Source: a virus
DNA length: 36,444 nt
Virus record (IMG/VR): IMGVR_UViG_3300045988_155528
Coordinates: 1-36,444 of that record
Reading direction: 5' to 3' (one strand)
Part shown: positions 2,656 through 27,025 of the stretch, in pieces
Layout of the letters: every line of letters starts with the position of its first letter
Position numbering within the stretch: the stretch's first letter is position 1
Notes under the pieces: generated by a model
What the model was told of the DNA's origin: nothing
Seen by the model: the letters and a program-made list of their open reading frames with translations, nothing else
Database searches by the model: none
Made by a program: the position numbers and the translations under genes

Positions 2656-2672
2656 GTGCCCGAATCGGGCAC
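2656..2672. repeat. Palindrome copy 1: GTGCCCGAATCGGGCAC
   Basis: Perfect 8-bp arms around one central base. The copy extends to a 19-bp palindrome at 2655-2673 and starts 2 nt after the stop at 2651-2653. Confidence 0.95.
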
Positions 2673-2692
2673 AAATCGAAAGGAGTCAAAAC

Positions 2693-2959
2693 ATGGAAAT
2701 AGTAGGCATAGCGAGCGTGGCGGCGATCACCGTCATCGCTTATCTTATCGGCGAGGTAGTCAAGGCAACCGGCCTTGACAACAAATGGATTCCCGTTATA
2801 TGCGGGGTCTGCGGCGGCGCGCTGGGTGTCGTGGGCATGATGATTATGCCGGAGTTTCCGGCGACGGATTACATAACCGCCGTCGCCGTCGGCATCGTGT
2901 CCGGCCTCGCAGCTACCGGCGCGAATCAGATCGTTAAGCAGCTGGGCAAGTCCGAATAA
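2693..2959 (+). CDS. Holin (multi-TM, Hol44 / holin superfamily V-like)
   Basis: AAAGGAG RBS. The 88-aa protein has three hydrophobic segments and a charged C-terminus (VKQLGKSE). The motif DNKWIPVICGVCGGALGV resembles Firmicute phage holins. It lies next to the endolysin. Confidence 0.75.
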   Translation: MEIVGIASVAAITVIAYLIGEVVKATGLDNKWIPVICGVCGGALGVVGMMIMPEFPATDYITAVAVGIVSGLAATGANQIVKQLGKSE

Positions 2960-2969
2960 CTATTAACAG

Positions 2970-2994
2970 GGTCTGACGCAAGCCGCGTCAGACC
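2970..2994 (+). terminator. Hairpin after the holin gene (10-bp stem, 5-nt loop, no U tract)
   Basis: GGTCTGACGC-aagcc-GCGTCAGACC. Confidence 0.35.
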
Positions 2995-3041
2995 GCACAG
3001 GAGGAGCGTTGCCGCGCTCCGGGTTTGCCGGCCGGCATGAT

Positions 3042-3287
3042 ATGACGATATCGGCAGAGCTGCGCGAGCAGCTTTTAAGACCGCACAGCAAGCCCAGTCT
3101 GTCGTTTCCGCGAGAGCTCAGAGAGCAGCTGGAACGCGACTGCGGCTTCACCGATGAGGAGATCACCGTCCTGCGTCTCTGCGGGCGCGGATGGTGCTAT
3201 GCAAGGATCGCCGACGAGCAGCATTGCAGCGTCGAGGTCATCAAGCGGCGGGTGCGGTCGATCAAGAATAAGATAGCGAACTTATAG
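3042..3287 (+). CDS. Small sigma-70 region-4 / LuxR-type HTH protein
   Basis: The sequence FTDEEITVLRLCGRGWCYARIADEQHCSVEVIKRRVRSIKNKI has the layout of a region-4 helix-turn-helix. An in-frame ATG at 3042 is preferred over the TTG at 3009. Confidence 0.6.
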   Translation: MTISAELREQLLRPHSKPSLSFPRELREQLERDCGFTDEEITVLRLCGRGWCYARIADEQHCSVEVIKRRVRSIKNKIANL

Positions 3288-6290: not shown

Positions 6291-6292
6291 AT

Positions 6293-6397: not shown

Positions 6398-7591
6398 TTA
6401 AGTATCTTGAAAAGTATCTTGAGAGCTGAAGGCAGCAAGCACAGATTTTGCGGTATCTTCCGGGCGATTTTGCATCAGATGCGCGTATATATTCAGCGTG
6501 ATCGCCGCCGTAGCGTGACCGGCGAGATACTGCGCCGTCTTGACATCAGCTCCGGACAAGATGAGCTCGGAAATGTATGTGTGCCGCAGCAGGTGCCGCG
6601 TTACATGGAAGTCAAAGGCAACCTTGATATCTCTGTACGGGACATCGTCCCCGACCTTCAGCTCTTTTGTGATCGTCTTGCCCTTGTTTTTGTTGTCCTT
6701 ATAGGTCACGGTGTGAACCTCGCGCACGGCGACGGCCTCCCATTCGTGCCGGAAGGACATGCTTGTATGAGGCGATCCGTCCCGGCGGCAGCAGACATAG
6801 CCGCTGTCGCGCCTGACGCTGCGCAGATGCTCCGTCAGAACGGGCGGTATCGGGACATCACGCCGCGCAGATTTGCTCTTGAGAGTATCCGTCAGAACGG
6901 GCTGGTTGTGCTCCCATCGTAGAGCACGGCGGACACGGATGTGAGGAGCCTTGCCGTCGAGGTCGACGCAGTCCCATTGCAGCCCCAGCGCCTCCTCCCT
7001 ACGGAGTCCGGCATACATACAGAGCATGACGAAAGTCAGTATACGCTCCCCTTGCAGCTCTTTAATGAGCGCGGCCTGCTGTTCTTTCGTCAGCGCGACC
7101 TTTTCGGGAGGCTTGCTGCCGCCGGCTTTAAGCCCCCGGCACGGAGAGCGGCTGATCAGCTCGTTCTCCTCAGCTGCTGCAAACATCATCTTGAGCGTCG
7201 TGACGATCTTCTGCTGGCTCGCTTTCGACAGATTCGCCGCGGCCAGCATTACGGCGCGGATGTTATCCGGCTTCACCTCATCGAGACGCATCTGACCGAT
7301 GACTGGGCAGATATGGTTATTTATCGCGTTCCTGTGGCTCTGCCGCCCGCTGGAGGACAGCCCGGCGGTGTTCAGCTCGTACCACTTCGCAGCGTACTCA
7401 AATACATACGGCGACTGCGGGTTTTCCATCTCGGCAAACTCCGCCTCTTTTTCGCGCAGGCGCTCACGCAGCTCAGCTTTTGTCTTACCGTAAATCGCAA
7501 GCCACTTGCCAGTCTGCGGGTTTTTTATTTGCTTTTTATAATACTTCTTTTCCTCGACCCATGTAAACTCCGGGCGATTATTCTTCGGCAA
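6398..7591 (-). CDS. int: Tyrosine recombinase / phage integrase
   Basis: 397 aa with a TTG start after GGGAG. The C-terminal catalytic region contains ARR..., HLLRHTYISELI, LAGHATAAITLNIYAHL (R..HxxR..Y pattern). It is adjacent to the tRNA-derived attP. Confidence 0.95.
   Translation of the reverse strand: MPKNNRPEFTWVEEKKYYKKQIKNPQTGKWLAIYGKTKAELRERLREKEAEFAEMENPQSPYVFEYAAKWYELNTAGLSSSGRQSHRNAINNHICPVIGQMRLDEVKPDNIRAVMLAAANLSKASQQKIVTTLKMMFAAAEENELISRSPCRGLKAGGSKPPEKVALTKEQQAALIKELQGERILTFVMLCMYAGLRREEALGLQWDCVDLDGKAPHIRVRRALRWEHNQPVLTDTLKSKSARRDVPIPPVLTEHLRSVRRDSGYVCCRRDGSPHTSMSFRHEWEAVAVREVHTVTYKDNKNKGKTITKELKVGDDVPYRDIKVAFDFHVTRHLLRHTYISELILSGADVKTAQYLAGHATAAITLNIYAHLMQNRPEDTAKSVLAAFSSQDTFQDT
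6401..6421 (+). repeat. Two more copies of AGTATCTTG (candidate P' arm sites) inside the 3' end of int
   Basis: Copies at 6401 and 6413. The stretch 6402-6426 nearly duplicates 6161-6184. Confidence 0.55.
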
Positions 7592-7606: not shown

Positions 7607-7659
7607 TACGTAAAAATACGTAAGTTTTGCTTGACATACGTAATGTTACGTGTTATAAT
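7607..7659 (+). promoter_or_regulatory. Consensus promoter (TTGACA-17-TATAAT) for hicAB, overlapped by TACGTAA operator-like repeats
   Basis: TTGACA at 7631-7636 and TATAAT at 7654-7659. TACGTAA occurs at 7607, 7617 and 7637, with an inverted TTACGTG at 7646. Confidence 0.7.
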
Positions 7660-7692
7660 ATAGTTACAGAGGATAAGAAAGGACGTGAGCAC

Positions 7693-7878
7693 ATAAAATA
7701 CAGCGAGTTGGAACGAGAGCTAAAAAAGGCCGGGTGCTACATCCTGAAAGAAGGTGGCAACCATTCAATATGGTTCAGCCCAGTGAGCGGCCAGAAGTTC
7801 ACAGTACCCCGGCACAAGACACAGGACGTCCCGAAGGGGACGCTGAAATCAATCAGGACGGCTGCGGGGCTTGAATAA
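7693..7878 (+). CDS. hicA: HicA-family toxin (mRNA interferase), apparent non-canonical ATA start
   Basis: (I)KYSELERELKKAGCYILKEGGNHSIWFSP...FTVPRHKTQDVPKGTLKSIRTAAGLE matches the Firmicute HicA layout, which normally starts MKYSE. No ATG or GTG lies between the -10 box and this point. An in-frame TTG at 7708 is the alternative start. Confidence 0.7.
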   Translation: MKYSELERELKKAGCYILKEGGNHSIWFSPVSGQKFTVPRHKTQDVPKGTLKSIRTAAGLE

Positions 7879-7913: not shown

Positions 7914-8309
7914 ATGGCGAAATATGTTTACCCTGCAATATTTACGCAGGAGGAAGAAGGTGGGTTCTCTATCCGGTTCCCTGACATTCCCGGGTGCTAT
8001 ACATCGGCCGAGACTATCGACGAGGGTATCTCAATGGCGAACGACGCGCTTTGCCTTATGCTTTACGACATGGAAGAAAACGGCGAAACTCCGCCCGTGC
8101 CCTCTAAGATCACCAATGTAGCCGTCGGCAGCGGCGAATTTGCAACGCTCATCGCCTGCGACACCATCGAGTACCGCAAGTTTTACGACAACCGAGCCGT
8201 AAAGAAAACACTCAGCATCCCCTCGTGGCTCAATACGATGGCAGAGCGCGAGAATATCAACTTTTCCGCAGTCCTCCAGCAGGCACTGAAAGCAGAACTG
8301 AAACTCTAA
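7914..8309 (+). CDS. hicB: HicB-family antitoxin with C-terminal RHH-type DNA-binding tail
   Basis: The N-terminus YPAIFTQEEEGGFSIRFPDIPGCYTSAETIDEGISMANDAL is typical of HicB. The C-terminus is KKTLSIPSWLNTMAERENINFSAVLQQALKAEL. Confidence 0.9.
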   Translation: MAKYVYPAIFTQEEEGGFSIRFPDIPGCYTSAETIDEGISMANDALCLMLYDMEENGETPPVPSKITNVAVGSGEFATLIACDTIEYRKFYDNRAVKKTLSIPSWLNTMAERENINFSAVLQQALKAELKL

Positions 8310-8313
8310 AAAT

Positions 8314-8330
8314 GTGCCCGAATCGGGCAC
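8314..8330. repeat. Palindrome copy 2: GTGCCCGAATCGGGCAC
   Basis: Perfect copy, extending to 19 bp at 8313-8331, located 4 nt after the hicB stop. Confidence 0.95.
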
Positions 8331-8375
8331 AAAAAAAGAAGTAACCGCCCTGGCTCCAACCCGGCGGTTACTTCT
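8331..8375 (-). terminator. Rho-independent terminator (13-bp stem), strongest on the minus strand
   Basis: AGAAGTAACCGCC (8337-8349) pairs with GGCGGTTACTTCT (8363-8375). On the minus strand it is followed by TTTTTT. Confidence 0.6.
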
Positions 8376-8532: not shown

Positions 8533-9438
8533 TCAAGCGTCAGCTACCGCATCCCAAAAGTCAGTCTCATTGACAATCTGGATAGCCGTCCCTTTTTTCC
8601 GTAGCCGTAACGCCTCTTCGATTTTTCGACCGTAGCAAGCAAATGCCCAGCACGGATTTCCAGCGTTGCCGACGACAAGGTAATCGGTCTTTGACGATAC
8701 TCCGCTACGCGGCACACCGCCGAGTCGCGTGACCGTATCGACGAACTCTGCTCGGCTGCATTTATACGATTCGCCCGTAAAACAGAACGCGCGTCCCTCA
8801 AAGACTATGTCAGGGCACATAGCGCAGATGCCGGAAACCGAATATTTCTCGCGAAGTGCGGCAAAATCCGGTTCAATTAGATTATAAGAATCCTTGAACT
8901 CAATCAAATTGCTGATAAAGGCCATAAGCATATTGCGCTCGTCCGTGCTGACCTGCCCATCAGCTAAAGCATAGGTCGTAAGAGACATCAACTCGTCATA
9001 AGGATATACACCCGCGAGAAAATCGTTGTTATCCAGCCAAGCCTTGAGTTGCTTAATCTCTGCGTCCGACAGTTCACCGTCAGCAAGCAAGCCGTGCGCC
9101 ATCCCTGAGAGATACTGCACAGCAGAGGTGATCACGTCGTAATACGGGCTACTCTCCGCACAGTTTTCGCAAAGCCACAATATATTTTGGCGCTCCTCGA
9201 CAGTGAAAACGCCATCGACAAGAGCTTCCTCCACGGCTGGAATAAGTTCTGTAAATGGATGGCGATTGCGCAGATTAGCATGTAGATTGACCCAGTTGGA
9301 CAACTCGCGAATCTCTTCCACGGAAGCGCTACCGTCTGCCGAGATTCCGGCAACAAGACCACGCAGCATATTAACAGCCTTATGCAGTTCTGCGGGTTTG
9401 CAGAACGACCGGTAATCTTCAAGATTGGCCGTATTCAT
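8533..9438 (-). CDS. TerB-like repeat protein with C-terminal BRCT domain (301 aa)
   Basis: The N-terminal two-thirds contain repeated L.G...G..ADG....E...L..W units (for example LRGLVAGISADGSASVEEIRELSNW and LSGMAHGLLADGELSDAEIKQLKAWL). The C-terminus FEGRAFCFTGESYKCSRAEFVDTVTRLGGVPRSGVSSKTDYLVVGN...KIEEA...G..IQIVNETDFW has the BRCT pattern of LigA-type proteins. AGGAGG RBS. Confidence 0.8.
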   Translation of the reverse strand: MNTANLEDYRSFCKPAELHKAVNMLRGLVAGISADGSASVEEIRELSNWVNLHANLRNRHPFTELIPAVEEALVDGVFTVEERQNILWLCENCAESSPYYDVITSAVQYLSGMAHGLLADGELSDAEIKQLKAWLDNNDFLAGVYPYDELMSLTTYALADGQVSTDERNMLMAFISNLIEFKDSYNLIEPDFAALREKYSVSGICAMCPDIVFEGRAFCFTGESYKCSRAEFVDTVTRLGGVPRSGVSSKTDYLVVGNAGNPCWAFACYGRKIEEALRLRKKGTAIQIVNETDFWDAVADA

Positions 9439-9465
9439 CCTCGTCGCCTCCTGATAAAATCGCCG

Positions 9466-9482
9466 GTGCCCGAATCGGGCAC
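9466..9482. repeat. Palindrome copy 3: GTGCCCGAATCGGGCAC (27-bp extended palindrome 9461-9487)
   Basis: Flanked by CGCCG and CGGCG. On the minus strand it is followed by ATTTTAT, so it looks like a terminator or attenuator between two minus-strand genes. Confidence 0.95.
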
Positions 9483-9492
9483 CGGCGTGAAT

Positions 9493-10038
9493 TTATTTCC
9501 CCCGCCGCTCTTTGCGGCTTATTACAAAGAAATGCACCGTCGCGGCGACGCCGGCCGTCAGCGCAACGATCACGACCGCTCCGACTACGGACGGGGAGCC
9601 CCGCCACAGGCCGAAGTCGGGGTCTATGATATCAAGTCTCAAATACGGGACAAGCGCGATGATCGCCATCGCTGCGACGAAGGTCAGGCAGTAGATCAGC
9701 CTGTCCTTTGCCCGCAGCGCCCGCCGGTGCTGCTCATACGAACGTTCCAGCAGCTCATTTTCTCGCTTGACTGCCGCATTATCGTGCTCGAGCACCTCTA
9801 TGCGGTGCTCGTTCTCCGGAGTTTTATCCGGAATTTCAATGCCGAAATACTCGTCCAGCGACACATTGCAGACCCGGCAGATCGGGCCGACCGTGTACAC
9901 CGACGGGTCCTTTGACGCTCTCGCGAAGAATCCGTTAACCGTCGCTTCCGGTACTCCAGACAGCTCCGCGATGCGCCTGCTTGAGTTGTTCCCCTTATTT
10001 GCCCGACACAGATCTTTTAACAGCGGCTTTTCCGCCAT
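9493..10038 (-). CDS. Membrane-anchored XRE-type HTH regulator (HTH, coiled coil, two C-terminal TM helices)
   Basis: RRIAELSGVPEATVNGFFAR...VCNVSLDEYFG is HTH_3-like. The TM helices are LIYCLTFVAAMAIIALVPYL and VVGAVVIVALTAGVAATVHFFVI. The start is taken at the ATG at 10038; 10059 is also possible. Confidence 0.7.
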   Translation of the reverse strand: MAEKPLLKDLCRANKGNNSSRRIAELSGVPEATVNGFFARASKDPSVYTVGPICRVCNVSLDEYFGIEIPDKTPENEHRIEVLEHDNAAVKRENELLERSYEQHRRALRAKDRLIYCLTFVAAMAIIALVPYLRLDIIDPDFGLWRGSPSVVGAVVIVALTAGVAATVHFFVISRKERRGK

Positions 10039-10388
10039 TTTCTCGCCCCCAAAACTCATTATATCCTGATTAAGGCATCAGATACCCGAGCTTCGCGGCC
10101 ATTTGACCGCGTTTGCGCATAGACATAACCGATGATATTATGATAATGTCTAAGCGTAACAGATAGACCATAACACCGGATATCTGCTAAAGCTTCGGCC
10201 CAGGCGGCAACCAAGGCCGGAGCAATTCTACAATGAAAGGGGGCGCAAGGCCGGCAGCCCTGCGGTGTTCCTGTGCGCCGCAAATTTATTTTAGGAGGCA
10301 ACCATGGAGGACACCAGACGAAGAGACCAGATCAACCGCGTTATCAGCAAGTATCAGATCCTGCCGCCGGAAGACCGGGAGAGGGTGC

Positions 10389-12091: not shown

Positions 12092-12379
12092 ATGCAGAGC
12101 GAGGCAGACAGAAAGCAGGTGATGATAATGGACGAGCTCAAGAGGCTGCGCGAGGCCGCGGGACTATCCCAAGTCCAGCTTGCATTGAGACTGGGCGTGT
12201 CGCAGGGCACTATAGCACACTGGGAAATCGGCAGACGCGCTCCGCAGGCCAGGCACCTTATAAAGCTGGCGAACATCCTCGGATGCAGCGTTGACGCGCT
12301 GCTCGGACTGAACACCCAGAGCGCGGACGCAGCCCGTGACAATACAATACCTGACAGGGAGGTGCGTGTCCATGGATAA
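12092..12379 (+). CDS. XRE-family HTH regulator (Cro-like)
   Basis: LKRLREAAGLSQVQLALRLGVSQGTIAHWEIGRRAPQARHLIKLANILGCSVDALLG. The start codon is uncertain (12092 or 12122). Confidence 0.75.
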   Translation: MQSEADRKQVMIMDELKRLREAAGLSQVQLALRLGVSQGTIAHWEIGRRAPQARHLIKLANILGCSVDALLGLNTQSADAARDNTIPDREVRVHG

Positions 12380-12824
12380 GGACGCCCGGAACATCTATAA
12401 AAACGCGCGGCAGACTGCCGGTCTGACGCAGGAGCGCTGGGCGGAGCTGCTGGGGATATCCCCGGACAGCGTCCGACGGTACGAAGCCGGGGCGATGCTG
12501 CCCAGCGACGAGACGGTGCTGATGATGGCGGAGACGACGGGTATCCTCGTGCTGCCGCTGTGGCACCTCAGGGCCAAGAGTGCGATAGCGCAGGACATGC
12601 TCCCGGATGTGCCGGATGTGCCGCTGCCGCAGGCTGTGCTGAAGCTGCTGACATCGGTCAAGGCCGTGAGCGGCAGCATCGACAACCTGATACAGATCGC
12701 GTCTGACGGAATGGTCGACAACCGCGAGGAGGCGCTCTTCGAGGAGATCGCGGGCGATCTCGACGACGTTATCGAGGCGGCGATTGCCGTCAAGTGCGCG
12801 GGAGGTGCGAGGCATGCAGAGTGA
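12372..12824 (+). CDS. HTH regulator with helical C-terminal domain (150 aa)
   Basis: GGGAGG RBS. ARQTAGLTQERWAELLGISPDSVRRYEAG is HTH-like. The gene overlaps the upstream stop. Confidence 0.8.
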   Translation: MDKDARNIYKNARQTAGLTQERWAELLGISPDSVRRYEAGAMLPSDETVLMMAETTGILVLPLWHLRAKSAIAQDMLPDVPDVPLPQAVLKLLTSVKAVSGSIDNLIQIASDGMVDNREEALFEEIAGDLDDVIEAAIAVKCAGGARHAE

Positions 12825-13475: not shown

Positions 13476-14234
13476 ATGGCTACAGGCGCATTATGCCGAA
13501 AGCCCGGGTACTGGGCAGTGCTGCCCGCAAGGGTGCGGTATGACGAAGAGCTGCGCCCCAATGCGAAGCTCATTTACGCAGAGATCACGGCGCTTGCGGA
13601 CAGTACCGGTTTTTGCTGGGCGACAAATAAGTATTTGAGCGAGCTTTTCGGGCTGTCCAAGAAGACCGTCAGTGATTTGATCGGGACGCTTGAGAAAAAA
13701 GGCTACATACAGATTGAGGTCGTCCGCGACGAGAAAGGTGCGGTTTCAGACCGAAAAATCTACGTCGACCGCGTGAGTGTCGTAGTGCCTGACCCTATCC
13801 CTAAAAATGGGGATAGGTATCCCCAAAATAACGGATACCCTATCCCCAAAAATGGGGAAGAGAATAATATATATATTAACAATAACCCCCCTATATCCCC
13901 CCAGGGGGATGATGTGTGTGCTTCTGATCCGAAGCATAAGCCGGAGCGCTTCACCAAGCTCTGGAGCTTCTACCCGCACTCCAAGCGCGGCAGTAAGCAG
14001 CGGGCTATGAGGGCATGGGATAAGCTCAAGCCATCGGACGAGCTGATCGACACCATTGCTAAGGCGCTTATGAGGCAGCTCCGGACGGACGAATGGAGCC
14101 GCGGCATAGGGGTGCCGCACCTCAGCTCCTACCTCAACGGGCGGCTCTGGCTCGACGCCGAGGAGATCGACGAGGCCCCGGCCACAGTGACCGGGATAAG
14201 CGACGACGGAGGGGAGCGAGAAGAATGGACCTGA
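13476..14234 (+). CDS. Replication initiator / replisome organiser (N-terminal winged-helix, DnaD-like C-terminal region)
   Basis: YWAVLPARVRYDEELRPNAKLIYAEITALADSTGFCWATNKYLSELFGLSKKTVSDLIGTLEKKGYI is the typical N-terminus of Firmicute phage replication proteins. It lies immediately upstream of DnaB. Confidence 0.85.
   Translation: MATGALCRKPGYWAVLPARVRYDEELRPNAKLIYAEITALADSTGFCWATNKYLSELFGLSKKTVSDLIGTLEKKGYIQIEVVRDEKGAVSDRKIYVDRVSVVVPDPIPKNGDRYPQNNGYPIPKNGEENNIYINNNPPISPQGDDVCASDPKHKPERFTKLWSFYPHSKRGSKQRAMRAWDKLKPSDELIDTIAKALMRQLRTDEWSRGIGVPHLSSYLNGRLWLDAEEIDEAPATVTGISDDGGEREEWT
13793..13900 (+). repeat. Iterons plus AT-rich tract inside the initiator gene (candidate ori)
   Basis: CCCTATCCCTAAAAATGGGGA (13793-13813) and CCCTATCCCCAAAAATGGGGA (13838-13858), with a third TATCCCCAAAA at 13818. 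These are followed by AGAATAATATATATATTAACAATAAC. Confidence 0.5.
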
Positions 14235-15742: not shown

Positions 15743-15771
15743 GCAAAATCAGAGTCTGGAGGACCACAACG

Positions 15772-16503
15772 ATGAGAACAACCGCGATAATCAACCTCAA
15801 GGGCGGCGTCGCAAAGACGACGACAGCCCTGAACATGGCCGCGATACTGGCCAAGGACTACAAGCAGCGCGTCCTGTTAGTGGACGCGGACAGCCAATGC
15901 AACTGCACCGAGTTTTTCCAGCGCGGCAACGCGCATCCCGGCACCCTCGCCGATATGCTGCGCGGCCTTGCGCCGTGCATCGAGCACAGCCGTTTCGACG
16001 GCGTCGACCTCCTGCCGGGAGACGACAGCCTGATGGATCTCGATCTGACGAAGATCGAGACCGGCAGCGCCTCCGCCGTGTGCCTGCGTGAGCTGACCGC
16101 GGAGCTGGGCGACAGGTACGACCGGATGATCATCGACTGCCCGCCGGCGTTCAATGCGGCCTCTGCCGCGGCGCTGGTGGCGGCGGACGAGGTCATCATC
16201 CCGATCAAGCTCGATGCGTTCTCCCTGCGTGGGATGGCGAACATCATGCAGCAGGTCAGCAATATGCGCAAGATCAACGACAGCCTCACCGTCGCTGGCA
16301 TACTGCCGACGATGTGGTACAAGTCAGATAACATCATCGAGGCCGAGAAGATGCTGCGCGAGTTCGGGCTCCCGGTGCTGCCGCATGTTCGGCGCACGAA
16401 CAAGGTCGACGACATGACCTTTGCGCAGGAGCCGCTTGTCATCAGCTCGCCGAAGAGCGCGGCGGGCGTCGATTACCGCCGCGTCGTCGCGGCGCTGATG
16501 TGA
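15772..16503 (+). CDS. parA: ParA/Soj-type partition ATPase
   Basis: Deviant Walker A NLKGGVAKTTT, followed by LLVDADSQ and IIDCPP. Confidence 0.9.
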   Translation: MRTTAIINLKGGVAKTTTALNMAAILAKDYKQRVLLVDADSQCNCTEFFQRGNAHPGTLADMLRGLAPCIEHSRFDGVDLLPGDDSLMDLDLTKIETGSASAVCLRELTAELGDRYDRMIIDCPPAFNAASAAALVAADEVIIPIKLDAFSLRGMANIMQQVSNMRKINDSLTVAGILPTMWYKSDNIIEAEKMLREFGLPVLPHVRRTNKVDDMTFAQEPLVISSPKSAAGVDYRRVVAALM

Positions 16504-16515: not shown

Positions 16516-17967
16516 ATGGGATTCGATTTAGCATCGGTGCTTAAAAACGTGCCCGAATCGGGCACAAGTGACGGCCGTGAGCGTATCGAGTACATAGGGC
16601 TCGACAAGCTGCACGACGACCCGAACAACTTCTACTCCCTCGACGGCATCGAGGAGCTCGCCGAGAACATCGAGTTTGCGGGGCTCCAGCAGCCCGTCCG
16701 CGTCCGCCGCGATGCGGAACACAGCGGTGAGTACATCATCGTCAGCGGTCACCGCCGCACGGCGGCGATGCGCAAGATCGTCGAGGACGGCAACAAGGCC
16801 TTTGAGACGGTGCCCTGTATCGTCGAGGCCGACGGCGGCAGCGAGGCTCTGCGTGAGCTGCGCCTGATCTATGCCAACTCCGACACCCGCCGGATGTCCT
16901 CCGCGGATATCTCCAAGCAGGCCGAGCGCGTCGAGGCACTGCTCTACCAGCTCAAGGAGGAGGGCGTCGAGTTCCCCGGCAGGATGCGCGACCATGTCGC
17001 CGAGGCCTGCAAGGTGAGCAAGTCGAAGCTGTCCCGCCTGAAGGTCATTCGCGACAAACTCGCTCCGGATATCTACGCCGGGTACTATGAAAGGGGCAAA
17101 CTGCCGGAGGACACGGCCTACGAGCTCGCCAAGCTTCCGGCCGACACCCAGCGTGTCATTGTTGACCGCGCGACGCGGAAAGACAGAGACGATATTAAGC
17201 TCCTTTATTCGAGCAGGGTCAAAGATCAGGGCGCGGATATCCAGCGTTTCAGCAAGATGGTCTGCCGCTGCGAGCAGGGCGGAACCTGCGTCAATGTTCC
17301 AAATCTCATGGACAAACTTTACTCCAACGGATGGCGAGGCTATACGCACTGCGGCTCCGGCTGCTGCTACGACTGCAACGAGCTTGCGACCTGCTCAAAA
17401 TGCTGCTCCCGCATGGCGGAAGTTAAGGCGCAGAAAAAGGCTGAGAACAAAGAGGCCAAGGCCGCGAAAGCTGCGGCGCAGGCCGAACGCGACAGGCCGA
17501 TGATCGACGCGCTGCGGCTCCTCTGGAACCGGATGGGCGAGGCCTGCAAGCGGTCGGGCGTCGATTACAACGAGGTCTGCGACAAGGCCGGCATATACGC
17601 CACCCTGCCTCCCAAGGACGCGACCCCGCTGCTCGACGGCGGCGGCAAGCTTACGGCAGACACCCGGCTTCCGTTCGGCTACGTCGTAGGCCGAGACGGT
17701 ATATCGAGCCTCGTCAAGCTGGCCGATCTGCTCGGCTGCTCGCTGGACTACCTCTTCGGCCGCGATGTGCCCGAATCGGGCACCGGCACGGCGGAGCCGA
17801 AGTGGATCGCAGGCAGGCCGACGAAGCCCGGCGTGTATCTGACCAAGTTCCACCCTCTGGATGATGACCTTGTGCTGGCTGACATCCAGACCGTATATGC
17901 CGACGGGTCGTTTTCCCTCGGCGATGTCGATGTCGTGGCGTGGTATCCTATCCCGCCAGAAGTGTGA
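16516..17967 (+). CDS. ParB/Srx-domain fusion protein (ParB N-domain, Cys-rich cluster, Lys/Ala coiled coil, HTH remnant, DUF551-like C-terminus)
   Basis: GLQQPVRVRR...IIVSGHRRTAAMRKI is a ParB box. The Cys-rich cluster is CRCEQGGTC...HCGSGCCYDCNELATCSKCCSRM. The coiled coil is KAQKKAENKEAKAAKAAAQAE. LVKLADLLGCSLDYLFG is an XRE-type end. VVAWYPIPPEV is a DUF551-like end. Confidence 0.85.
   Translation: MGFDLASVLKNVPESGTSDGRERIEYIGLDKLHDDPNNFYSLDGIEELAENIEFAGLQQPVRVRRDAEHSGEYIIVSGHRRTAAMRKIVEDGNKAFETVPCIVEADGGSEALRELRLIYANSDTRRMSSADISKQAERVEALLYQLKEEGVEFPGRMRDHVAEACKVSKSKLSRLKVIRDKLAPDIYAGYYERGKLPEDTAYELAKLPADTQRVIVDRATRKDRDDIKLLYSSRVKDQGADIQRFSKMVCRCEQGGTCVNVPNLMDKLYSNGWRGYTHCGSGCCYDCNELATCSKCCSRMAEVKAQKKAENKEAKAAKAAAQAERDRPMIDALRLLWNRMGEACKRSGVDYNEVCDKAGIYATLPPKDATPLLDGGGKLTADTRLPFGYVVGRDGISSLVKLADLLGCSLDYLFGRDVPESGTGTAEPKWIAGRPTKPGVYLTKFHPLDDDLVLADIQTVYADGSFSLGDVDVVAWYPIPPEV
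16549..16565. repeat. Palindrome copy 4, inside the ParB-like CDS (encodes VPESGT)
   Basis: Perfect GTGCCCGAATCGGGCAC at codons 12-17. Confidence 0.95.
17767..17783. repeat. Palindrome copy 5, inside the ParB-like CDS (encodes VPESGT again)
   Basis: Perfect copy in the same reading frame, at codons 418-423. Confidence 0.95.
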
Positions 17968-20170: not shown

Positions 20171-20221
20171 TTAAACATCGCGGTCTATGGCCATGAGGCA
20201 AAGGACGTCAGGAGTATGCAC

Positions 20222-20944
20222 ATGGCTTACCGCAAAAAGATCATATCGGCCGGGCCGCTGGTTAAGGAGATCATATACCCGTATCGCTCAGGCGGCAGCA
20301 GCTCAAACGGACGGCAGCGCACCGGGACAAGCTCGGAAGCGCAGCGCCGGATGAACGCCATCTATTCATGGCAGAAACTTGAGCTGCTGCTCGCAGCGAA
20401 CCTCGTCAAGGGCGACGTCGTCGGGTGCCTGACCTTCGACGACTATCACCTCCCGGAGACCCGCGAGCAGGTCCGGAATAAATTCAAGTGGTTTCTCGAC
20501 AAACTCCGGGCAGCGCGCGAAGCGCGAGGACAGAACCTTGTCATGCTCTGGTCGATCGAGCACCTCCACGGCGAGGGGCGCTGGCACATTCACATAGCCT
20601 GCAACGCGACCGGCAACGACTACGAGGAGATGCTCCGGCTATGGGGGCAAGGTGAATGCGAGTTCAACGCGCTGCGCGTCGATAAGAAAAAGAACTATGA
20701 GACCTTGGCCCGGTACATGGCCAAGGAGGAACGGGACAAGATAGGGCAGCGCTCTTGGAGCTACACCCGCAACGCTAAGAAGCCGGAAGTTGAGAGCTTC
20801 TCCGTGCGGGAGTTCACGCCGCTGCGCGTGCCGAAGGACACGACAGTGTTCGAGGACGTCCGCAGCCGCGGCGAATGGCAGTACGTTAAATACGCTTATA
20901 ACAACGCGCTTAAGGTTCGGCGGCACCGCAGACGCCGGTCGTAG
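20222..20944 (+). CDS. HUH-type Rep-like protein (rolling-circle replication-associated family)
   Basis: LTFDDYHLP, the HUH motif GRWHIHIACN and the Tyr motif YETLARYMAKE are present. The ATG at 20222 has better spacing from AGGAG than the one at 20216. Confidence 0.75.
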   Translation: MAYRKKIISAGPLVKEIIYPYRSGGSSSNGRQRTGTSSEAQRRMNAIYSWQKLELLLAANLVKGDVVGCLTFDDYHLPETREQVRNKFKWFLDKLRAAREARGQNLVMLWSIEHLHGEGRWHIHIACNATGNDYEEMLRLWGQGECEFNALRVDKKKNYETLARYMAKEERDKIGQRSWSYTRNAKKPEVESFSVREFTPLRVPKDTTVFEDVRSRGEWQYVKYAYNNALKVRRHRRRRS

Positions 20945-20947: not shown

Positions 20948-20964
20948 GTGCCCTATTCGGGCAC
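20948..20964. repeat. Palindrome copy 6, variant GTGCCCTATTCGGGCAC
   Basis: Opposite central-base orientation and one arm mismatch. It lies 3 nt after the Rep-like stop. Confidence 0.85.
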
Positions 20965-23936: not shown

Positions 23937-23947
23937 GGAGTGATGCT

Positions 23948-25129
23948 TTGAGCATATTCGACAGATTTATAAATAAGACAATTTCCCGCGTCGACCTTGT
24001 GACTGAGCGCGGCAACGGCTTTTTTGCATGGAACGGCAAGGCTTACCAGAGCGACATTGTCCTCTCCGCCATCCGGCAGGATGTGAAGGCCGTCGGCAAG
24101 CTGACGCCGAAGCACGTCCGGGAAAGCTTCACCGCCGACGGCAAGCGCAAGATCGACATAAATCCGGAGCCTTACATCCGGTTCCTGCTTGAGGAGCCGA
24201 ACCCGTGGATGACGGGCTCGGTGTTCCGCGAGAAGCTGATGACTCAGCTCAAGCTCAACCAGAACGCTTTCGCGCTGATCCTGCGTGATGACAACGGGCT
24301 TCCGGTCAATATCTATCCGATATCGGCCTCCGGCTGTGAGGCGATCTATGACCGCAGCGGTGAGCTGTTCCTCAAGTTCTTTTTCAACAACGGCAAAATC
24401 TTTACCTTCAGGTACACGGACGTGATCCACCTGCGGGATAACTTCCACAAGGACGATATCTTTGGGACGCCGATATTTCCGGCGCTCGAACCGCTGATGC
24501 AGATCGTGTCCGTCACAGACCAGGGCATTGTCAAGGCCGTCAAAAACAGCTCGGTCATCCGCTGGCTGCTGAAGCTCAACAGCTCGATGCGGAAGAAGGA
24601 CGTTGAAGAGCAGGCGAACAGCTTCGCCAAGGCGTTTCTCGACGTCGAAAACGGCCGCGGAGTGGCCGCGGTCGACGCGAAGGCTGACGCCGTGCAGGTC
24701 AACCCGACCGACTACGTGCCGAACGCCGCGCAGATGGACCGAACCACAAAGCGCATTTATTCGCTTTTTGGGACTAATCAGAAGGTCGTTGACACCTCGC
24801 GCAGCGAGGCCGAGTGGGGCGCACACTTCGACAGCGAGGTCGAGTGGGTGCAGAACCAGCTCAGCGAGGAGTTTACCCGGAAACTGTTTTCCCGCAAGGC
24901 GCGAGCCTTCGGGAACAAGATCGTATTCGAGGCGAGCGCTTGGGACTGCGCGAGCATGCAGACCAAGCTCAATCTCGTTTCACTCGTCGACCGCGGCGCT
25001 CTGACGCCGAACGAGTGGCGCGCTGCGTTCAACCTCGCACCGGTCGACGGCGGCGATGAGCCGATACGGCGTCTTGACACCGCGCCGACAAAGCAAATAG
25101 GAGAGGAGGCATCATCCGGTGAGAATTGA
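23948..25129 (+). CDS. Portal protein (HK97 family-like)
   Basis: 393 aa. TTG start 8 nt after AGGGAG. It lies between terL and the prohead protease. Confidence 0.9.
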   Translation: MSIFDRFINKTISRVDLVTERGNGFFAWNGKAYQSDIVLSAIRQDVKAVGKLTPKHVRESFTADGKRKIDINPEPYIRFLLEEPNPWMTGSVFREKLMTQLKLNQNAFALILRDDNGLPVNIYPISASGCEAIYDRSGELFLKFFFNNGKIFTFRYTDVIHLRDNFHKDDIFGTPIFPALEPLMQIVSVTDQGIVKAVKNSSVIRWLLKLNSSMRKKDVEEQANSFAKAFLDVENGRGVAAVDAKADAVQVNPTDYVPNAAQMDRTTKRIYSLFGTNQKVVDTSRSEAEWGAHFDSEVEWVQNQLSEEFTRKLFSRKARAFGNKIVFEASAWDCASMQTKLNLVSLVDRGALTPNEWRAAFNLAPVDGGDEPIRRLDTAPTKQIGEEASSGEN

Positions 25130-25796
25130 TGTAAAGGGCACCATCGTCAGCAGCGATGAAGCCTGGATCTACGATTGGTTTGGGATCGAGAACACAAGCC
25201 CGAAGCCGATCAGGGACGCTCTGGCGAGGGCCAGAGGCGAACCCGTTGACGTCTACATAAACTCCGGCGGCGGCGATATCTTCGCCGGGTCGGAAATATA
25301 CTCTGAGCTCAGAGCCTACAAAGGGCCGGTCGCATTGCATGTGACCGGCCTTGCTGCATCTGCGGCCTCGGTGATCGCCTGTGCAGGCCCGTCGGACATC
25401 TCGCCGACGGGGATGGTCATGGTACATAACGTGTCCGGCAGCGCTGCCGGGGACTACCACACCATGGACAAGCACAGCGACGTCCTCCGCAAGGCGAACG
25501 AGACGATTGCCGCCGCCTATGTGGAGAAAACCGGCATGACGCTTGACGAGGCGCTGAAGCTCATGGACGAGGAAACGTGGCTCTCCGCGGCTGACGCTGT
25601 GGAGAAAGGTCTGATCGATAAGGTCAGCGAGCCCGCCGTCCGCATCACGGCCGCCTGCTGCACGGTGCTGCCGGCGGAAGTTATCAACAAAATGCGCAAC
25701 TCGATCAAACCGCCCGAGGGCGAGCCCGCGGACGATCTGATAAAAGCCAAGGCCAAACTCAAATTTTTTGAACTGAAAGGAAGATCTCTCACATGA
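25119..25796 (+). CDS. Prohead (head maturation) protease, ClpP-like
   Basis: INSGGGDIFAGSEIYSELRAYKGPVALHVTGLAASAASVIACAG...MVHN. Confidence 0.9.
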   Translation: MRIDVKGTIVSSDEAWIYDWFGIENTSPKPIRDALARARGEPVDVYINSGGGDIFAGSEIYSELRAYKGPVALHVTGLAASAASVIACAGPSDISPTGMVMVHNVSGSAAGDYHTMDKHSDVLRKANETIAAAYVEKTGMTLDEALKLMDEETWLSAADAVEKGLIDKVSEPAVRITAACCTVLPAEVINKMRNSIKPPEGEPADDLIKAKAKLKFFELKGRSLT

Positions 25797-27007
25797 AGAA
25801 AGAAATCTATCTCCAGAAGCGCGGCGAGCTTATGAATCAGGCCCAGCAGCTTCTGGACGCCGGTGATACCGAGAAGTTCGAGGATGTCACCAAGCAGATT
25901 GAAGCCCTCGACAACGAGTACGAGGAATCCAGCAAGCGCCAGGCGAACCTTGACGCGCTCAAGGACCGTGTCGCCGGCCCTGACTTCGCCGCCGCTGCCG
26001 CTAACCCGCAGTTCGGCAACGTGGTCGGCCGCTACGAGCAGGGCGCGCCCGACGATATGTACGACTCCGCCGAGTATAAGGCGGCGTTCCAGGCATACGT
26101 CTGCCGCGGCGTTCCCATCCCGGCGAAGTTCTCCAATGCCGACCAGAACACCAAGACCAGCGATGCGTCCGTAGTCATTCCGACCACGACCGTCCAGAAG
26201 ATCTATGAGGCGATGGAGCGCGTCGGCAACATTCTGCCGCTCGTCACCCGCACGAACTTTGCCGGCGGCATGTCCGTGCCCACCTCCAGCGTCAAGCCGA
26301 CCGCGACGTGGGTCGCCGAAGGCGCAGGCTCCGACACCCAGAAGAAGACCGTCTCTTATATCTCGTTTTCTTACCACAAGCTGCGCTGCGCAGTCCGTGT
26401 CAGCTACGAGATGGATAACATGGCTTACGGTTTTTTCGAGGCACAGCTGGCGCAGAACGTTGCCGAGGCGATCGTCAAGGCCGAGGAGACCGCCATCTTT
26501 AAGGGCACCGGCAGCGGCCAGCCCAAGGGCTTCCTGGCCGAGACCGCCACGGGCAACATCGACATCGCCAACACCAAGCACATTTCTTACGCCGACCTCT
26601 GCAAGGCCGAAGGCCTTGAGGAAGACGACGAGGCCATCTGGGTTATGACCAAGGCGACCTTCATGAACGAGATTCAGGGCATGGTCGATACCGACGGTCA
26701 GCCCGTCGCCCGCGTCAACTACGGCCTCAACGGCAAGCCCGAGTATTACATCTTCGGCCGCCGCGTCGAGATCGTCAACAAGGCTTACATGGATGACGCG
26801 AACCCTAACCCGACCGCCGACACCATCTGCGCCGCGCTCTACAACTTCCGCAACTACATTTTCAACAGCGGCGTCGCACTGCGCTTCCGCCGCTACACCG
26901 ACGACAAGACCGACGATGAAGTTACCGTCGCGATTGAGGTCTGCGACGGCAGGAGCGTCCAGAATCAGAGCCTTATCACGCTGACCAACAAGAAGGCGGG
27001 CGGCTAA
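25793..27007 (+). CDS. Major capsid protein (HK97 fold family) with N-terminal delta/scaffold domain
   Basis: 404 aa. Coiled-coil N-terminus (KRGELMNQAQQLLDAGD...), followed by an HK97-like body. Gene order is protease then capsid. Confidence 0.9.
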   Translation: MKKEIYLQKRGELMNQAQQLLDAGDTEKFEDVTKQIEALDNEYEESSKRQANLDALKDRVAGPDFAAAAANPQFGNVVGRYEQGAPDDMYDSAEYKAAFQAYVCRGVPIPAKFSNADQNTKTSDASVVIPTTTVQKIYEAMERVGNILPLVTRTNFAGGMSVPTSSVKPTATWVAEGAGSDTQKKTVSYISFSYHKLRCAVRVSYEMDNMAYGFFEAQLAQNVAEAIVKAEETAIFKGTGSGQPKGFLAETATGNIDIANTKHISYADLCKAEGLEEDDEAIWVMTKATFMNEIQGMVDTDGQPVARVNYGLNGKPEYYIFGRRVEIVNKAYMDDANPNPTADTICAALYNFRNYIFNSGVALRFRRYTDDKTDDEVTVAIEVCDGRSVQNQSLITLTNKKAGG

Positions 27008-27008
27008 T

Positions 27009-27025
27009 GTGCCCGAATCGGGCAC
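27009..27025. repeat. Palindrome copy 7: GTGCCCGAATCGGGCAC
   Basis: Perfect copy. The 19-bp version (27008-27026) starts immediately after the capsid stop at 27005-27007. Confidence 0.95.

Follow-up and report, generated by a model that had tools for sequence, protein, structure and literature searches.

A dispersed palindrome associated with a ParB-like gene in temperate phages is a candidate ParB-type docking site

Seven palindrome copies in a complete phage genome

The window, i.e., the whole stretch of 36,444 nucleotides that we analyzed, is the ~36.4-kb genome of a temperate gut-bacterium phage that encodes a tyrosine integrase. Its first 46 nt are identical to its last 46 nt, indicating a complete circular assembly in which seven is the whole-genome count of the element described here. 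This element is a 17-bp palindrome, GTGCCCGAATCGGGCAC, present as six perfect copies (starting at 2656, 8314, 9466, 16549, 17767 and 27009) and one decayed variant, GTGCCCTATTCGGGCAC, starting at 20948. A sequence scan re-located exactly every copy listed by the initial annotation, and also bore out its arm extensions, which reach 19 bp in three copies (2655-2673, 8313-8331 and 27008-27026) and 27 bp in one (9461-9487). The copies and the genes relevant to their interpretation are as follows:

2656..2672, unstranded: palindrome copy 1, perfect; the flanking T/A pair brings it to 19 bp
8314..8330, unstranded: palindrome copy 2, perfect; 19 bp
9461..9487, unstranded: palindrome copy 3, a perfect 17-mer (9466-9482) inside a 27-bp perfect palindrome
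12372..12824: Xre-like regulator gene
15589..16503, plus strand: ParA-family ATPase gene (phrog_164), directly upstream of the ParB-like gene
16516..17967, plus strand: ParB-like protein gene, 483 aa (phrog_27290)
16549..16565, unstranded: palindrome copy 4, perfect; read in frame as VPESGT at codons 12-17 of the ParB-like gene
17767..17783, unstranded: palindrome copy 5, perfect; read in frame as VPESGT at codons 418-423 of the ParB-like gene
20216..20944: HUH rep gene
20948..20964, unstranded: palindrome copy 6, decayed; one arm position unpaired
27009..27025, unstranded: palindrome copy 7, perfect; 19 bp

Allowing up to 3 mismatches, we counted 14 strand-matches (7 loci on both strands) against a mean of 0.09 and a maximum of 1 across 100 dinucleotide-preserving shuffles, upholding the earlier view that the copies lie beyond chance.

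Copy 1 occupies a 39-nt spacer between the stop of an XhlA-like gene (2653) and the ATG of a holin gene (2693), a position just 5' of holin that is also filled in relatives and in ParB-less phages. Copy 2 lies in a convergent intergenic region, 4 nt past the HicB stop codon, with TTTTT coming next on the minus strand, and copy 3 is flanked by a minus-strand CI-like HTH gene (9493..10059) and the gene 8533..9438, at a position kept in at least 8 close relatives. Copy 6, 3 nt past the HUH rep stop codon, is decayed here and, by inheritance, in L075, L241 and L247, whereas L010, L028, L087 and other relatives have a perfect site in its place. Copy 7 starts 1 nt past the major capsid stop, with the next gene (27047) 21 nt on, and is kept in relatives (cluster C11). 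Copies 4 and 5 lie in frame inside the ParB-like gene, contrary to the initial annotation, which held that no annotated gene explains the copies; copy 5 is found in 18 of 18 close relatives, and also in L303, there as the GTGCCCAATTTGGGCAC variant.

A ParB-like protein and its ParA-family neighbor

The ParB-like protein is predicted to consist of an N-terminal helix, a disordered linker, a ParB/Noc/KorB-type NTPase-fold domain and a central HTH DNA-binding domain. Next come a region with 8 invariant cysteines and a long helix; a partial XRE-like HTH and then another disordered linker lead to the C-terminal domain, which is small and of beta type. A profile search matched Noc and Spo0J-parS (E = 2e-11, with alignment through the HTH), and a Foldseek search with the structural model returned Noc, KorB and ParB over the N-terminal and DNA-binding domains (target-normalized TM-scores 0.60-0.68). 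The NTPase-fold domain carries a GHRR box II as well as N121 and R125 of box III, and G78, H79, R80, R81, A84, N121 and R125 are invariant among homologues. Box I, however, has changed from QPR to NFY, and the protein lacks the LG(R/K)GL motif that canonically binds ParA, which leaves CTP use and ParA coupling uncertain. The parA gene, for which our own gene-caller run gave a likely start at 15772, adjoins or co-occurs with the ParB-like gene in 57/62 distant loci among those listed.

In the AlphaFold model, pLDDT drops below 50 in two segments only, and these are exactly where the in-gene palindromes sit: copy 4 in the predicted disordered linker at aa 11-20, and copy 5 in the second at aa 418-427. 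Together with the data from relatives below, this makes the ParB-like protein the most likely candidate for binding the palindrome. Against this reading, loci using different site variants have almost the same central HTH (GRMRDHVAEACKVSKSKLSRLKVIR), so that no co-variation between protein and site is visible, and symmetric changes at positions 4 and 7 of the site occur without an obvious shift in specificity.

A site family that tracks the ParB-like gene

The palindrome belongs to a site family with recurrent positions, co-varying copies and an association with the ParB-like gene. Its consensus, GTG-Y-CC-R-A-W-T-Y-GG-R-CAC, recurs in numerous phages and prophages of gut (Oscillospiraceae-type) bacteria. 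We examined 80 loci fetched by ParB-like homology from among the matches listed (36-96% identity), which are phylogenetically non-independent, and found that codons ~10-20 of the ParB-like gene hold a family palindrome in 50 of 81 cases, with the position of this 5' copy kept in homologues down to ~36% identity. The encoded peptide changes with the DNA variant, being VP(E/D)SGT for GTGCCCGAWTCGGGCAC, VPNLGT for GTGCCCAATTTGGGCAC and VS(K/N)LDT for GTGTCCAAWTTGGACAC, and the GTGCCCAGATGGGCAC variant is read in another frame; such changes (VPESGT, VPNLGT, VSKLDT) argue that selection acts on the DNA. The coding copies represent linkers altered by point substitution, with the reading frame preserved, and not insertions of 17 bp, and none of the other genes has a site at a deeply conserved internal position as parB does. 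In the remaining 31/81 ParB-like loci the in-gene site is degenerate, and 18 of these 31 still have sites elsewhere.

Each genome uses one variant, with dispersed sites of the same type as the in-gene site in 19/22 distant loci (among loci listed); discordant cases include L278 (in-gene type D, dispersed type B) and L305 (in-gene type C, dispersed type D). Near ParB-like genes we counted 154 sites in 1.22 Mb, with a density of 0.7-1.2 per 10 kb even when the gene itself is left out, compared with 1 site in 1.14 Mb in the single control lineage, whose phages come from the same metagenomes and lack both ParB and ParA. The motif has not been lost from relatives that keep ParA and ParB: all 18 of 18 close relatives, at loci of at most 21 kb, retain 2-5 perfect copies each.

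These relatives also bear on the centre of the palindrome. The initial annotation had drawn an argument from a shared central base, and the six perfect copies of this genome do all have A on the plus strand; at orthologous sites of close relatives, however, A and T are about equally frequent, so the centre base holds no conserved information and the argument fails.

Duplex DNA or RNA hairpin

Across the family, 35 of 43 intergenic contexts lie between co-directional genes, typically 0-28 nt past a stop and 0-20 nt ahead of the next start, often abutting the RBS. This placement would suit an intercistronic hairpin acting at the RNA level, whose 7-8-bp G+C-rich stem might stabilize the mRNA, mark it for processing or attenuation, or modulate the initiation of translation, and might be recognized by a sequence-specific RNA-binding factor or nuclease, with the 5' copy in parB as a cis-regulatory hairpin. 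Consistent with such a role, seven stretches of 51-61 nt fold stably as RNA (MFE about -15 to -29 kcal/mol), and arm extension of at least 4 bp by non-conserved complementary bases was observed 9 times against 0.32 expected, suggesting that hairpin or cruciform formation matters at some sites. Copy 7 directly follows the major capsid gene, a classic place for an attenuating or stabilizing hairpin. ParB-less phages, moreover, keep a single palindrome copy upstream of the holin gene, where an unrelated hairpin replaces the palindrome in about 9/77 relatives; at least that position thus seems to have a ParB-independent, hairpin-type role, and it remains a puzzle for the ParB reading.

Several other features are not those expected of an RNA element. 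In imperfect copies, G.U wobbles on the transcribed strand (28) are matched by their A.C mirror (27), indicating no RNA wobble bias. Unpaired arm positions concentrate mid-stem, at position 4 (26) and position 7 (23), rather than at stem ends (positions 1-3, 5 and 6 together 8/63), a pattern that fits a protein reading duplex half-sites. The centre, which would form the loop, is A or T regardless of transcription direction, and no Rfam family matched any palindrome copy. Structure alone needs no identical sequence within a genome or across distant phages, and an RNA hairpin would explain neither why the sites track the ParB-like gene nor why ParB-less phages lack dispersed copies. On sequence grounds the signature is one of duplex DNA rather than RNA, and we consider a hairpin function of the family as a whole unlikely. 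Its terminator form, which the initial annotation had raised as an RNA 3'-end hairpin, is disfavored by these mid-stem mismatches and by the T-rich tail found in only 2 of 43 intergenic contexts.

Other candidate binders of the palindrome

If the site is read as duplex DNA, it might instead be an operator of another phage protein, such as a regulator of the conserved early module binding a classical multi-site repressor or activator box, or of the ParB-like protein's own C-terminal XRE-like HTH. The size and symmetry of the palindrome suit an HTH dimer; site variants differ without matching change in the central ParB-type HTH, the second, XRE-like HTH is more variable, and the Xre-like gene is present in 37/62 distant loci among those listed. 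Against this, only 2 of 43 intergenic contexts are divergent promoter regions, and parB alone holds a site at a deeply conserved internal position. By presence or absence, DnaB, ParA and Rep are inseparable from the ParB-like gene in the loci listed. Multi-site loci do occur without Xre-like, CI-like or DnaD-like genes, however, and the site following rep is missing from nearly all distant rep loci, making the other constant neighbors poor candidates; an operator of this kind is accordingly rather improbable.

The HUH Rep protein could in principle use the palindrome as a single-strand hairpin, or have spread it as a REP/MITE-like mobile element. A rep homologue belongs to the conserved module in 52/62 distant loci (among loci listed), close relatives have a copy 3 nt past the rep stop, and the extended arms suggest hairpin formation. 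Yet the post-rep copy is missing at 49/50 distant rep loci among those listed, which carry instead a shared ACTTG(A/T)A...TATTAT box in AT-rich DNA, Rep's own conserved box, which we take to resemble a phiX174/pC194-type nick site. The tolerance of mid-stem mismatches, a loop of just 1-3 nt and the in-frame point substitution of coding copies also speak against a Rep hairpin, no conserved asymmetric flank was seen by eye around the copies, and those in bacterial genomes are restricted to prophage-like DNA. We therefore give this proposal, an alternative in the initial annotation, very little credence.

A host-directed signal mimicked by phages of one host clade (a host-protein site, or an uptake-like or Chi-like sequence) is equally hard to credit: although the motif is common to several distinct gut Oscillospiraceae-type phage groups, one of them ParB-less, and variants could follow host lineages, a representative-genome scan placed 18 of 120 matches listed in prophage-like DNA of Clostridia MAGs and the other 102 singly in unrelated high-GC taxa, a pattern compatible with chance, no locus showed a chromosomal background density, and the conserved in-parB position would be left without a reason. 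The same scan speaks against the host-wide REP repeat that had also been suggested.

Comparison with known ParB-type systems

The closest parallels are found among ParB-family proteins. KorB of the IncP-1 plasmid RK2, a dual partition and regulatory protein, acts at 12 dispersed OB sites (core TTTAGCGGCTAAA) with the ParA homologue IncC as partner. In both systems a ParB-family protein with a ParA partner has short palindromes scattered over its replicon, the odd-length OB likewise tolerates asymmetry at its central base, and the Foldseek match to KorB covers the N-terminal and DNA-binding domains (TM-scores 0.60-0.67). The sites, however, are unrelated in sequence and differ in length (17 bp in the phage, 13 bp in OB), box I differs, the phage protein adds the 8-invariant-Cys region, XRE-like HTH and C-terminal beta domain, and a KorA/TrbA-like partner was not identified in this phage. 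The replicon here is also an integrase-bearing temperate phage, with sites mostly intercistronic or in coding linkers rather than promoter-associated.

Phage N15, a linear plasmid prophage needing partition, similarly combines a temperate lifestyle, a ParA/ParB-type pair (SopA/SopB) and single palindromic sites that are scattered, not clustered (four dispersed sites, IR1-IR4). It differs from the present phage, which has a tyrosine integrase, seven sites, two of them within the parB-like gene, and a ParB-like sequence that is not SopB-like, its best matches being Noc, Spo0J and KorB.

By sequence and by structure, the phage protein is matched best by chromosomal ParB (Spo0J)-parS and Noc-NBS. 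These systems use palindromes of 14-16 bp, those of Noc are dispersed, and Lin and Grossman reportedly located in 1998 a parS inside the spo0J coding region, a precedent for an in-gene site. Unlike Spo0J and Noc, the phage protein has NFY for the box I QPR, no LG(R/K)GL motif and a different C-terminal architecture, and its site is unrelated to TGTTNCACGTGAAACA or NBS.

Finally, BisD of ICEclc, encoded on an integrated element, is a ParB-like CTP clamp that loads at parS-like sites, spreads and regulates element promoters. BisD works with BisC through a dedicated activator domain and has two bisS sites, compared with seven sites and an adjacent parA gene here, where an activator partner is not in evidence.

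Proposed function

Overall, the dispersed palindromes are probably the places where a new ParA/ParB-family system loads onto the DNA, in the manner of parS or OB. The initial annotation had assigned them to the adjacent ParA and ParB-like pair, and this assignment, shorn of its central-base argument, gains from the in-gene site, the variant match between in-gene and dispersed copies, their retention in close relatives, the ParB-less contrast and the ParB/Noc/KorB fold. From sequence we infer that the ParB-like protein binds these sites, that binding depends on a nucleotide, and what biological role may follow. The 17-bp palindrome would be a specific duplex docking site, comparable to parS, a Noc-binding site or a KorB OB, whose two GTG.CC half-sites a ParB-like dimer would read via the central HTH, working alongside the ParA ATPase encoded directly upstream. 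Nucleotide binding by the N-terminal ParB-fold domain would then lead to clamping and spreading from each of the ~7 sites, and could coat the 36-kb genome. Sites spread over such a compact genome would do least harm in very small gaps between cistrons or, within genes, in frame at disordered linkers, two of which belong to the parB-like gene itself.

Coating could allow ParA to position and segregate phage DNA that is not integrated, could exert long-range control over phage transcription units in the manner of KorB or BisD, or could do both. The phage has an integrase, which makes its need for partition unclear, and BisD-bisS illustrates that integrating elements can carry ParB-like proteins whose job is not partition; a KorB/BisD-like regulatory role would fit equally well. 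Whichever applies, the same site, in co-varying versions, is present at the start of the ParB-like gene in thousands of related uncharacterized phages.

A palindrome dispersed at gene ends and within the ParB-like gene

Using a pattern search, we recovered six perfect copies and one variant of the palindrome at the coordinates that the initial annotation had given. Chance matches averaged 0.09 (at most 3 mismatches, 100 dinucleotide-preserving shuffles), bearing out its view that the recurrence cannot be accidental, and the palindrome reaches 19 bp in three copies and 27 bp in one, again as described. The initial annotation also held that no annotated gene explains the copies, which overlooked two that lie in frame within ORF 16516..17967 (the ParB-like gene), each encoding V-P-E-S-G-T. 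All five copies outside this gene are located at gene ends.

Copies of the palindrome in the window (start, form, location)
2656, perfect GTGCCCGAATCGGGCAC, between the XhlA-like gene and the holin gene
8314, perfect, 4 nt 3' of the HicB stop
9466, perfect, between two minus-strand genes
16549, perfect, in frame within the ParB-like gene
17767, perfect, in frame within the ParB-like gene
20948, variant GTGCCCTATTCGGGCAC, 3 nt 3' of the rep stop
27009, perfect, 1 nt 3' of the capsid stop

Positions 1-46 and 36399-36444 of the window are an identical 46-nt direct repeat, which indicates a complete circular assembly of ~36.4 kb, with these seven sites as the whole total. The shared central A, to which the initial annotation had drawn attention, carries no meaning, since orthologous sites have either A or T there (differing in 24% of orthologous pairs vs. 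a per-site flank difference of 7.5%).

Genome context

We assigned gene content from Pfam, NCBIfam and PHROGs scans together with an ad hoc codon-model gene caller, the latter replacing a stop-to-stop coding classifier and flank codon score that are unreliable at this GC content. The genome is that of a temperate tailed phage, and no useful annotated close relative emerged when 25 kb of it was compared by megablast with INPHARED phages and PLSDB plasmids.

Principal genes of the window
1627-2349, endolysin (lysis module)
2693-2959, holin (lysis module)
6398-7591, minus strand, tyrosine integrase
7627..7878, HicA toxin gene (phrog_353), beside the integrase
7914..8309, HicB antitoxin gene, beside the integrase
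8533-9438, minus strand, phrog_3989, 301 aa, unknown function, with a C-terminal BRCT-like domain (cf. NAD-dependent ligases)
9493-10059, CI-like HTH gene of the minus-strand lysogeny module
13476..14234, DnaD-like gene (early module, with DnaB and a methylase)
15589-16503, ParA (early module)
16516-17967, ParB-like (early module)
20216-20944, HUH Rep (early module)
Further modules: terminase, portal, ClpP, capsid and tail genes

Several other features were observed in this genome. A sigma-70-like consensus promoter lies at 7631-7659 (TTGACA, 17-nt spacer, TATAAT, with TG upstream), and the third palindrome copy separates the CI-like repressor gene from the downstream phrog_3989 gene (8533-9438). 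The lysis/lysogeny switch region contains identical 34-nt direct repeats (AATAAATCATAACGGAGGCGAGGGCAGGAAAATG, a ribosome-binding site (RBS) plus ATG) at 10862-10895 and 11458-11491, which are candidate duplicated translation starts, and a near-perfect 19+19-nt palindrome at 11047-11084, a candidate operator. On the plus strand of the early region, just 5' of an Xre-like regulator gene, 12051-12105 gives a full-length but sub-threshold match to the type-P1 twister ribozyme RF03160 (model positions 1-68, 45.9 bits vs. a gathering score of 67.2, E = 3.2e-7). Inside the DnaD-like gene, 13790-13910 holds iteron-like repeats (CCCTATCCCCAAAAATGGGGA twice and TGGGGATAGGTATCCCCA) followed by an AT-rich stretch (AATAATATATATATTAACAATAA) and a C/G palindrome, making it a candidate theta-type replication origin within an initiator gene; comparable clustered palindromes occur 3-4 kb 5' of the parB-like gene in seven of the viral loci fetched for comparison (L314, L315, L317, L271, L267, L308 and L290).

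A family of symmetric sites in gut Clostridia phages

The exact 17-mer was found in at least 120 IMG/VR stretches, mostly from human-gut metagenomes, and the 153 occurrences among the matches listed fall into 47 distinct flank contexts. By inspection, the flanks around the copies have only palindromic extensions in common, with no conserved asymmetric flank visible. Representative genomes likewise yielded at least 120 stretches; among those listed, 18 were prophage-like, all of them in MAGs of Clostridia (Dysosmobacter, Oscillibacter, Ruminococcaceae) with 3-34 ORFs apiece that resemble ORFs of the viral loci, while 102 were lone copies in unrelated taxa (mean GC 0.65), which we read as chance matches. 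With the genome matches listed being either prophage-like or chance-level singles, we reject a host-wide REP/RAYT- or MITE-like palindrome, the generic element that the initial annotation had set against a link between the site and the ParB-like protein.

An alignment of diverged homologues (A1) led to 80 viral loci with ParB-like relatives at 36-96% identity; samples comprised 80-120 loci per query and included partial contigs and non-independent lineages. All 18 close relatives carry 2-5 perfect copies per locus of at most 21 kb, so that the motif is not lost from relatives retaining ParA and ParB, an outcome the initial annotation had named as contrary to its proposal. Some distant loci lack the canonical motif and have instead a recurrent variant in which both arms are changed symmetrically (GTGTCCGA-W-TCGGACAC, GTGCCCAA-W-TTGGGCAC, GTGTCCAA-W-TTGGACAC or GTGCCCA-NN-TGGGCAC), giving the family consensus GTG-Y-CC-R-A-W-T-Y-GG-R-CAC. 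In the searchable literature, neither the 17-mer nor three variants appeared, and we found no published description of a site for this ParB-like family.

The candidate binder is a divergent ParB-fold protein

The 483-aa ParB-like protein matches only ParB_N in Pfam (27.1-29.6 bits vs. a cut-off of 26.3) and belongs to phrog_27290 ('unknown function'), a family whose membership exceeds 4,297 at E <= 1e-10 and is almost entirely unnamed. Comparison of the family profile with PDB retrieved Noc and a Spo0J-parS complex (E = 2e-11, aligned through the HTH), and in the alignment to 4umk, the Spo0J-parS complex of H. pylori, the HMM match spans residues 27-168, HTH included. Foldseek aligned 190-247 columns over the N-terminal and DNA-binding domains of Noc, KorB and ParB (probability 1.00, target-normalised TM-scores 0.60-0.68). 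Both a ParB-fold N-terminal domain (box II GxxRxxA, box III Asn and Arg) and the central HTH that follows it are present, and G78, H79, R80, R81 and A84 of box II and N121 and R125 of box III are invariant in 38 homologues.

Box I diverges, its aligned position reading D-P-N-N-F-Y (N38, F39 and Y40 invariant) where canonical box I, the C-motif that confers cytidine specificity, has Q-P-R; CTP, ATP and GTP are all possible ligands of the ParB fold. The canonical ParA-stimulating N-terminal motif is (L/F/I)G(K/R)G(L/F/I), and no motif of this LG(R/K)GL type occurs in the 483-aa sequence, whose N-terminus is modelled by AlphaFold2 as a short helix (MGFDLASVLKN). A ParB-CTPase-DUF3850 fusion has been reported with parA in prophages; our protein is not such a fusion, having no DUF3850 match even at E <= 10. 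The DNA-binding domain is followed by a region with eight invariant cysteines, then by a 50-residue helix and a partial XRE-like HTH, and finally by a small beta domain.

Cysteine region of the ParB-like protein
17263-17406 (aa 250-297), C250, C258, C279, C283, C284, C287, C293 and C297, invariant in 38 homologues

These cysteines could mark a domain with a zinc or iron-sulfur cluster, a feature that to our knowledge is undescribed for ParB-family proteins. The adjoining ORF 15589..16503 matches the AAA_31, CbiA and ParA models and phrog_164, and the cis site expected of a ParABS arrangement is represented by the two palindromes inside the parB-like gene.

A DNA site carried inside the ParB-like gene

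In 50 of 81 loci, the ParB-like gene carries a perfect family palindrome at codons ~10-20; at many homologue loci the in-gene site is degenerate. The position is conserved across homologues of 36-96% identity, with the variants co-varying, and the encoded peptide tracks the DNA variant (VP(E/D)SGT, VPNLGT, VS(K/N)LDT or VSETDT, the 16-bp variant being read in another frame). Such changes indicate that the peptide is a footprint of the DNA element; among the 120 best homologues listed, VPDSGT (31) and VPESGT (26) are nearly equal owing to the A/T centre of the palindrome. In an AlphaFold2 model built on the 38-sequence alignment (mean pLDDT 82.6), pLDDT falls below 50 only at residues 11-20 and 418-427, exactly the palindrome-encoded stretches, so that on this model the in-gene sites are parked in predicted disordered linkers. 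More broadly, 34 of 36 coding contexts are in the frame giving an innocuous linker peptide, the pattern expected if the DNA site is tolerated rather than the peptide selected.

In 19 of 22 distant loci, the dispersed copies and the in-gene copy are of one type. Discordance was seen in locus L278 (in-gene GTGTCCAAATTGGACAC vs. three dispersed GTGTCCGAWTCGGACAC) and locus L305 (in-gene GTGCCCAATTTGGGCAC vs. two dispersed GTGTCCAAWTTGGACAC), and may be due to a recent exchange of modules or to relaxed specificity. We also sought co-variation of the central HTH with the site variant and found none; the HTH is nearly invariant across variants, leaving the symmetric changes at arm positions 4 and 7 without a protein-side explanation.

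Dispersed sites accompany the ParB-like module

In one large group of motif-bearing loci ('C00'), the palindrome occurs once, directly against the holin RBS. Walking from one C00 contig yielded 80 loci (1.14 Mb) of a single lineage that has a RecT/YqaJ-type early module, is essentially devoid of ParB-like and ParA genes and contains 1 family site in 1.14 Mb, compared with 154 sites in 1.22 Mb of ParB-like loci (0.7-1.2 sites per 10 kb outside the gene). These densities indicate, relative to one ParB-less control lineage, that the dispersed multi-copy state goes with the ParB-like module. Since DnaB, ParA and HUH Rep also belong to the module, presence or absence alone does not single out the ParB-like protein: ParA co-occurs with it in 57 of 62 distant loci. 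Helping to narrow the choice, multi-site loci without the Xre-like, CI-like and DnaD-like genes do exist.

Recognition of the palindrome by the HUH Rep is disfavoured, as the post-rep copy is not deeply conserved (present in 10 of 18 close relatives and one 64%-identity locus, absent in 49 of 50 distant rep loci) whereas a separate element is. This is an ACTTG(A/T)A...TATTAT box in AT-rich DNA directly 3' of rep in nearly all of the ~50 distant loci.

ACTTG box in the window
~20990-21020, with CTTGAAAC at 20995-21002; same position in loci L259-L319

The box resembles the nick site of the phiX174 gpA / pC194 type (CAACTTG|ATATTAATAAC) and is a candidate Rep origin.

Duplex site or hairpin

Several results favour the palindrome acting as a hairpin rather than as a sequence-specific duplex site. 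Its stems are stable as RNA, in 35 of 43 intergenic contexts it occupies a short spacer separating co-directional genes (in many cases directly against an RBS), and non-conserved complementary arm extensions of at least 4 bp number 9 vs. 0.32 expected, in coding and intergenic copies alike. Other results point to a sequence-specific duplex site. Within a genome the copies share one sequence, more than structure alone would demand, and across 68 distinct imperfect copies the transcribed strand shows 28 G.U wobbles, matched by 27 of their A.C mirror images. Unpaired positions concentrate at arm positions 4 (26) and 7 (23) and scarcely affect positions 1-3, 5 and 6, a pattern opposite to thermodynamic stem selection and expected of base-specific reading of a GTG.CC half-site. 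The centre, moreover, is A or T irrespective of transcription direction, and the innocuous linker frame of coding copies again speaks for a site in DNA.

Intrinsic (Rho-independent) terminators are rejected as a general explanation, with a T-rich tail in only 2 of 43 intergenic contexts and a terminator pattern in the window only at 9461-9487 and in minus-strand readings of 8313-8331 and 16548-16566; no Rfam family overlaps any palindrome copy. Inversion of the centre through hairpin template switching, suggested by the excess of centre over flank differences between orthologous sites, is disfavoured by the 16-bp variant, whose 2-nt centre is inverted in 0 of 39 cases at the orthologous parB site, so that an unconstrained centre is the simpler reading.

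The orphan site upstream of the holin also speaks for a hairpin role. We fetched 77 holin loci of the ParB-less lineage (in L400-L479) without motif selection, and found perfect arms in 60 (centre A in 32, T in 22, C in 6), one arm mismatch in 8, and unrelated hairpins at the same place in ~9 (e.g., CGGCGtgtaaaGCGCCG and TGTCGtgaaTCGACA). The centre varies among A, T and C even in ~99% identical ParB-less phages. This suggests hairpin-dependent control of holin expression by the orphan copy. A palindromic protein site necessarily forms a hairpin in the transcript and so may accumulate at cistron boundaries, where hairpins would be harmless or useful; at some positions, such as upstream of the holin, the hairpin itself may have gained or kept a role.

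A probable ParB-family system of dispersed sites

The initial annotation's proposal of parS-like sites for the ParA/ParB pair is retained as the best-supported explanation, on the strength of in-gene conservation, variant matching and site density; on this comparative sequence evidence the palindromes are probably cognate sites of the ParA/ParB-like pair, whose role may be either partition or KorB/BisD-like regulation. The nearest functional analogues are KorB/IncC of RK2, with 12 dispersed OB sites of odd-length core; N15 SopB, whose four inverted repeats are scattered over a phage genome; the ParB-like CTP clamp BisD, which loads onto an integrated element, ICEclc, at parS-like sites; and parS inside spo0J, a known precedent for a site within the gene. 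Unlike these, the phage system has its own site sequence, extra protein domains and sites in coding linkers and intercistronic spacers, and is further set apart by its divergent box I and ParA motif and its integrase. KorB sites are promoter-associated and a co-repressor locks the KorB clamp, whereas here just 2 of 43 intergenic contexts fall in divergent promoter regions, the majority of sites being intercistronic or coding. N15 is an extrachromosomal linear-plasmid prophage without an integrase, whereas our phage encodes a tyrosine integrase (6398..7591), and large contigs in MAGs of Clostridia contain homologous prophage-like DNA. We would place the system as a variant of the known ParB-family dispersed-site type, with a cis element that appears newly assigned to a gut-phage family.

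A bolder reading, which we hold only tentatively and think rather unlikely, is that the palindrome family is the loading site of a widespread uncharacterised phage ParB-like NTP-dependent clamp (phrog_27290, more than 4,000 members, gut Clostridia phages) that organises or regulates the integrating prophage genome-wide instead of partitioning it. Such a clamp would load where cistrons and operons meet, as well as at the two linker sites in its own gene, providing built-in autoregulation, and its Cys-cluster and XRE-like domains would couple clamp state to a signal. As a corollary, 'conserved' N-terminal peptides (VSKLDT, VPESGT and others) would be DNA-site footprints and not protein motifs.

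ParB-like proteins of this family are common in human-gut Oscillospiraceae-type prophages, and assignment of the palindromes to them would, if true, supply the missing cis element for a large phage ParB-like family labelled 'unknown function'. The system would be directly testable, as this assignment defines an oligonucleotide, a protein and seven ChIP targets. It would also illustrate a DNA-binding site kept inside coding sequence by way of disordered linkers, where an apparent peptide motif is a nucleic-acid signal. The site family could then help annotate such phages, and its variants could predict incompatibility or cross-talk groups of co-resident prophages. Finally, a temperate integrase-bearing phage would join the short list of elements with dispersed ParB-family sites (RK2, N15, ICEclc), which would bear on whether the role of these clamps in phages is segregation, silencing or genome organisation.
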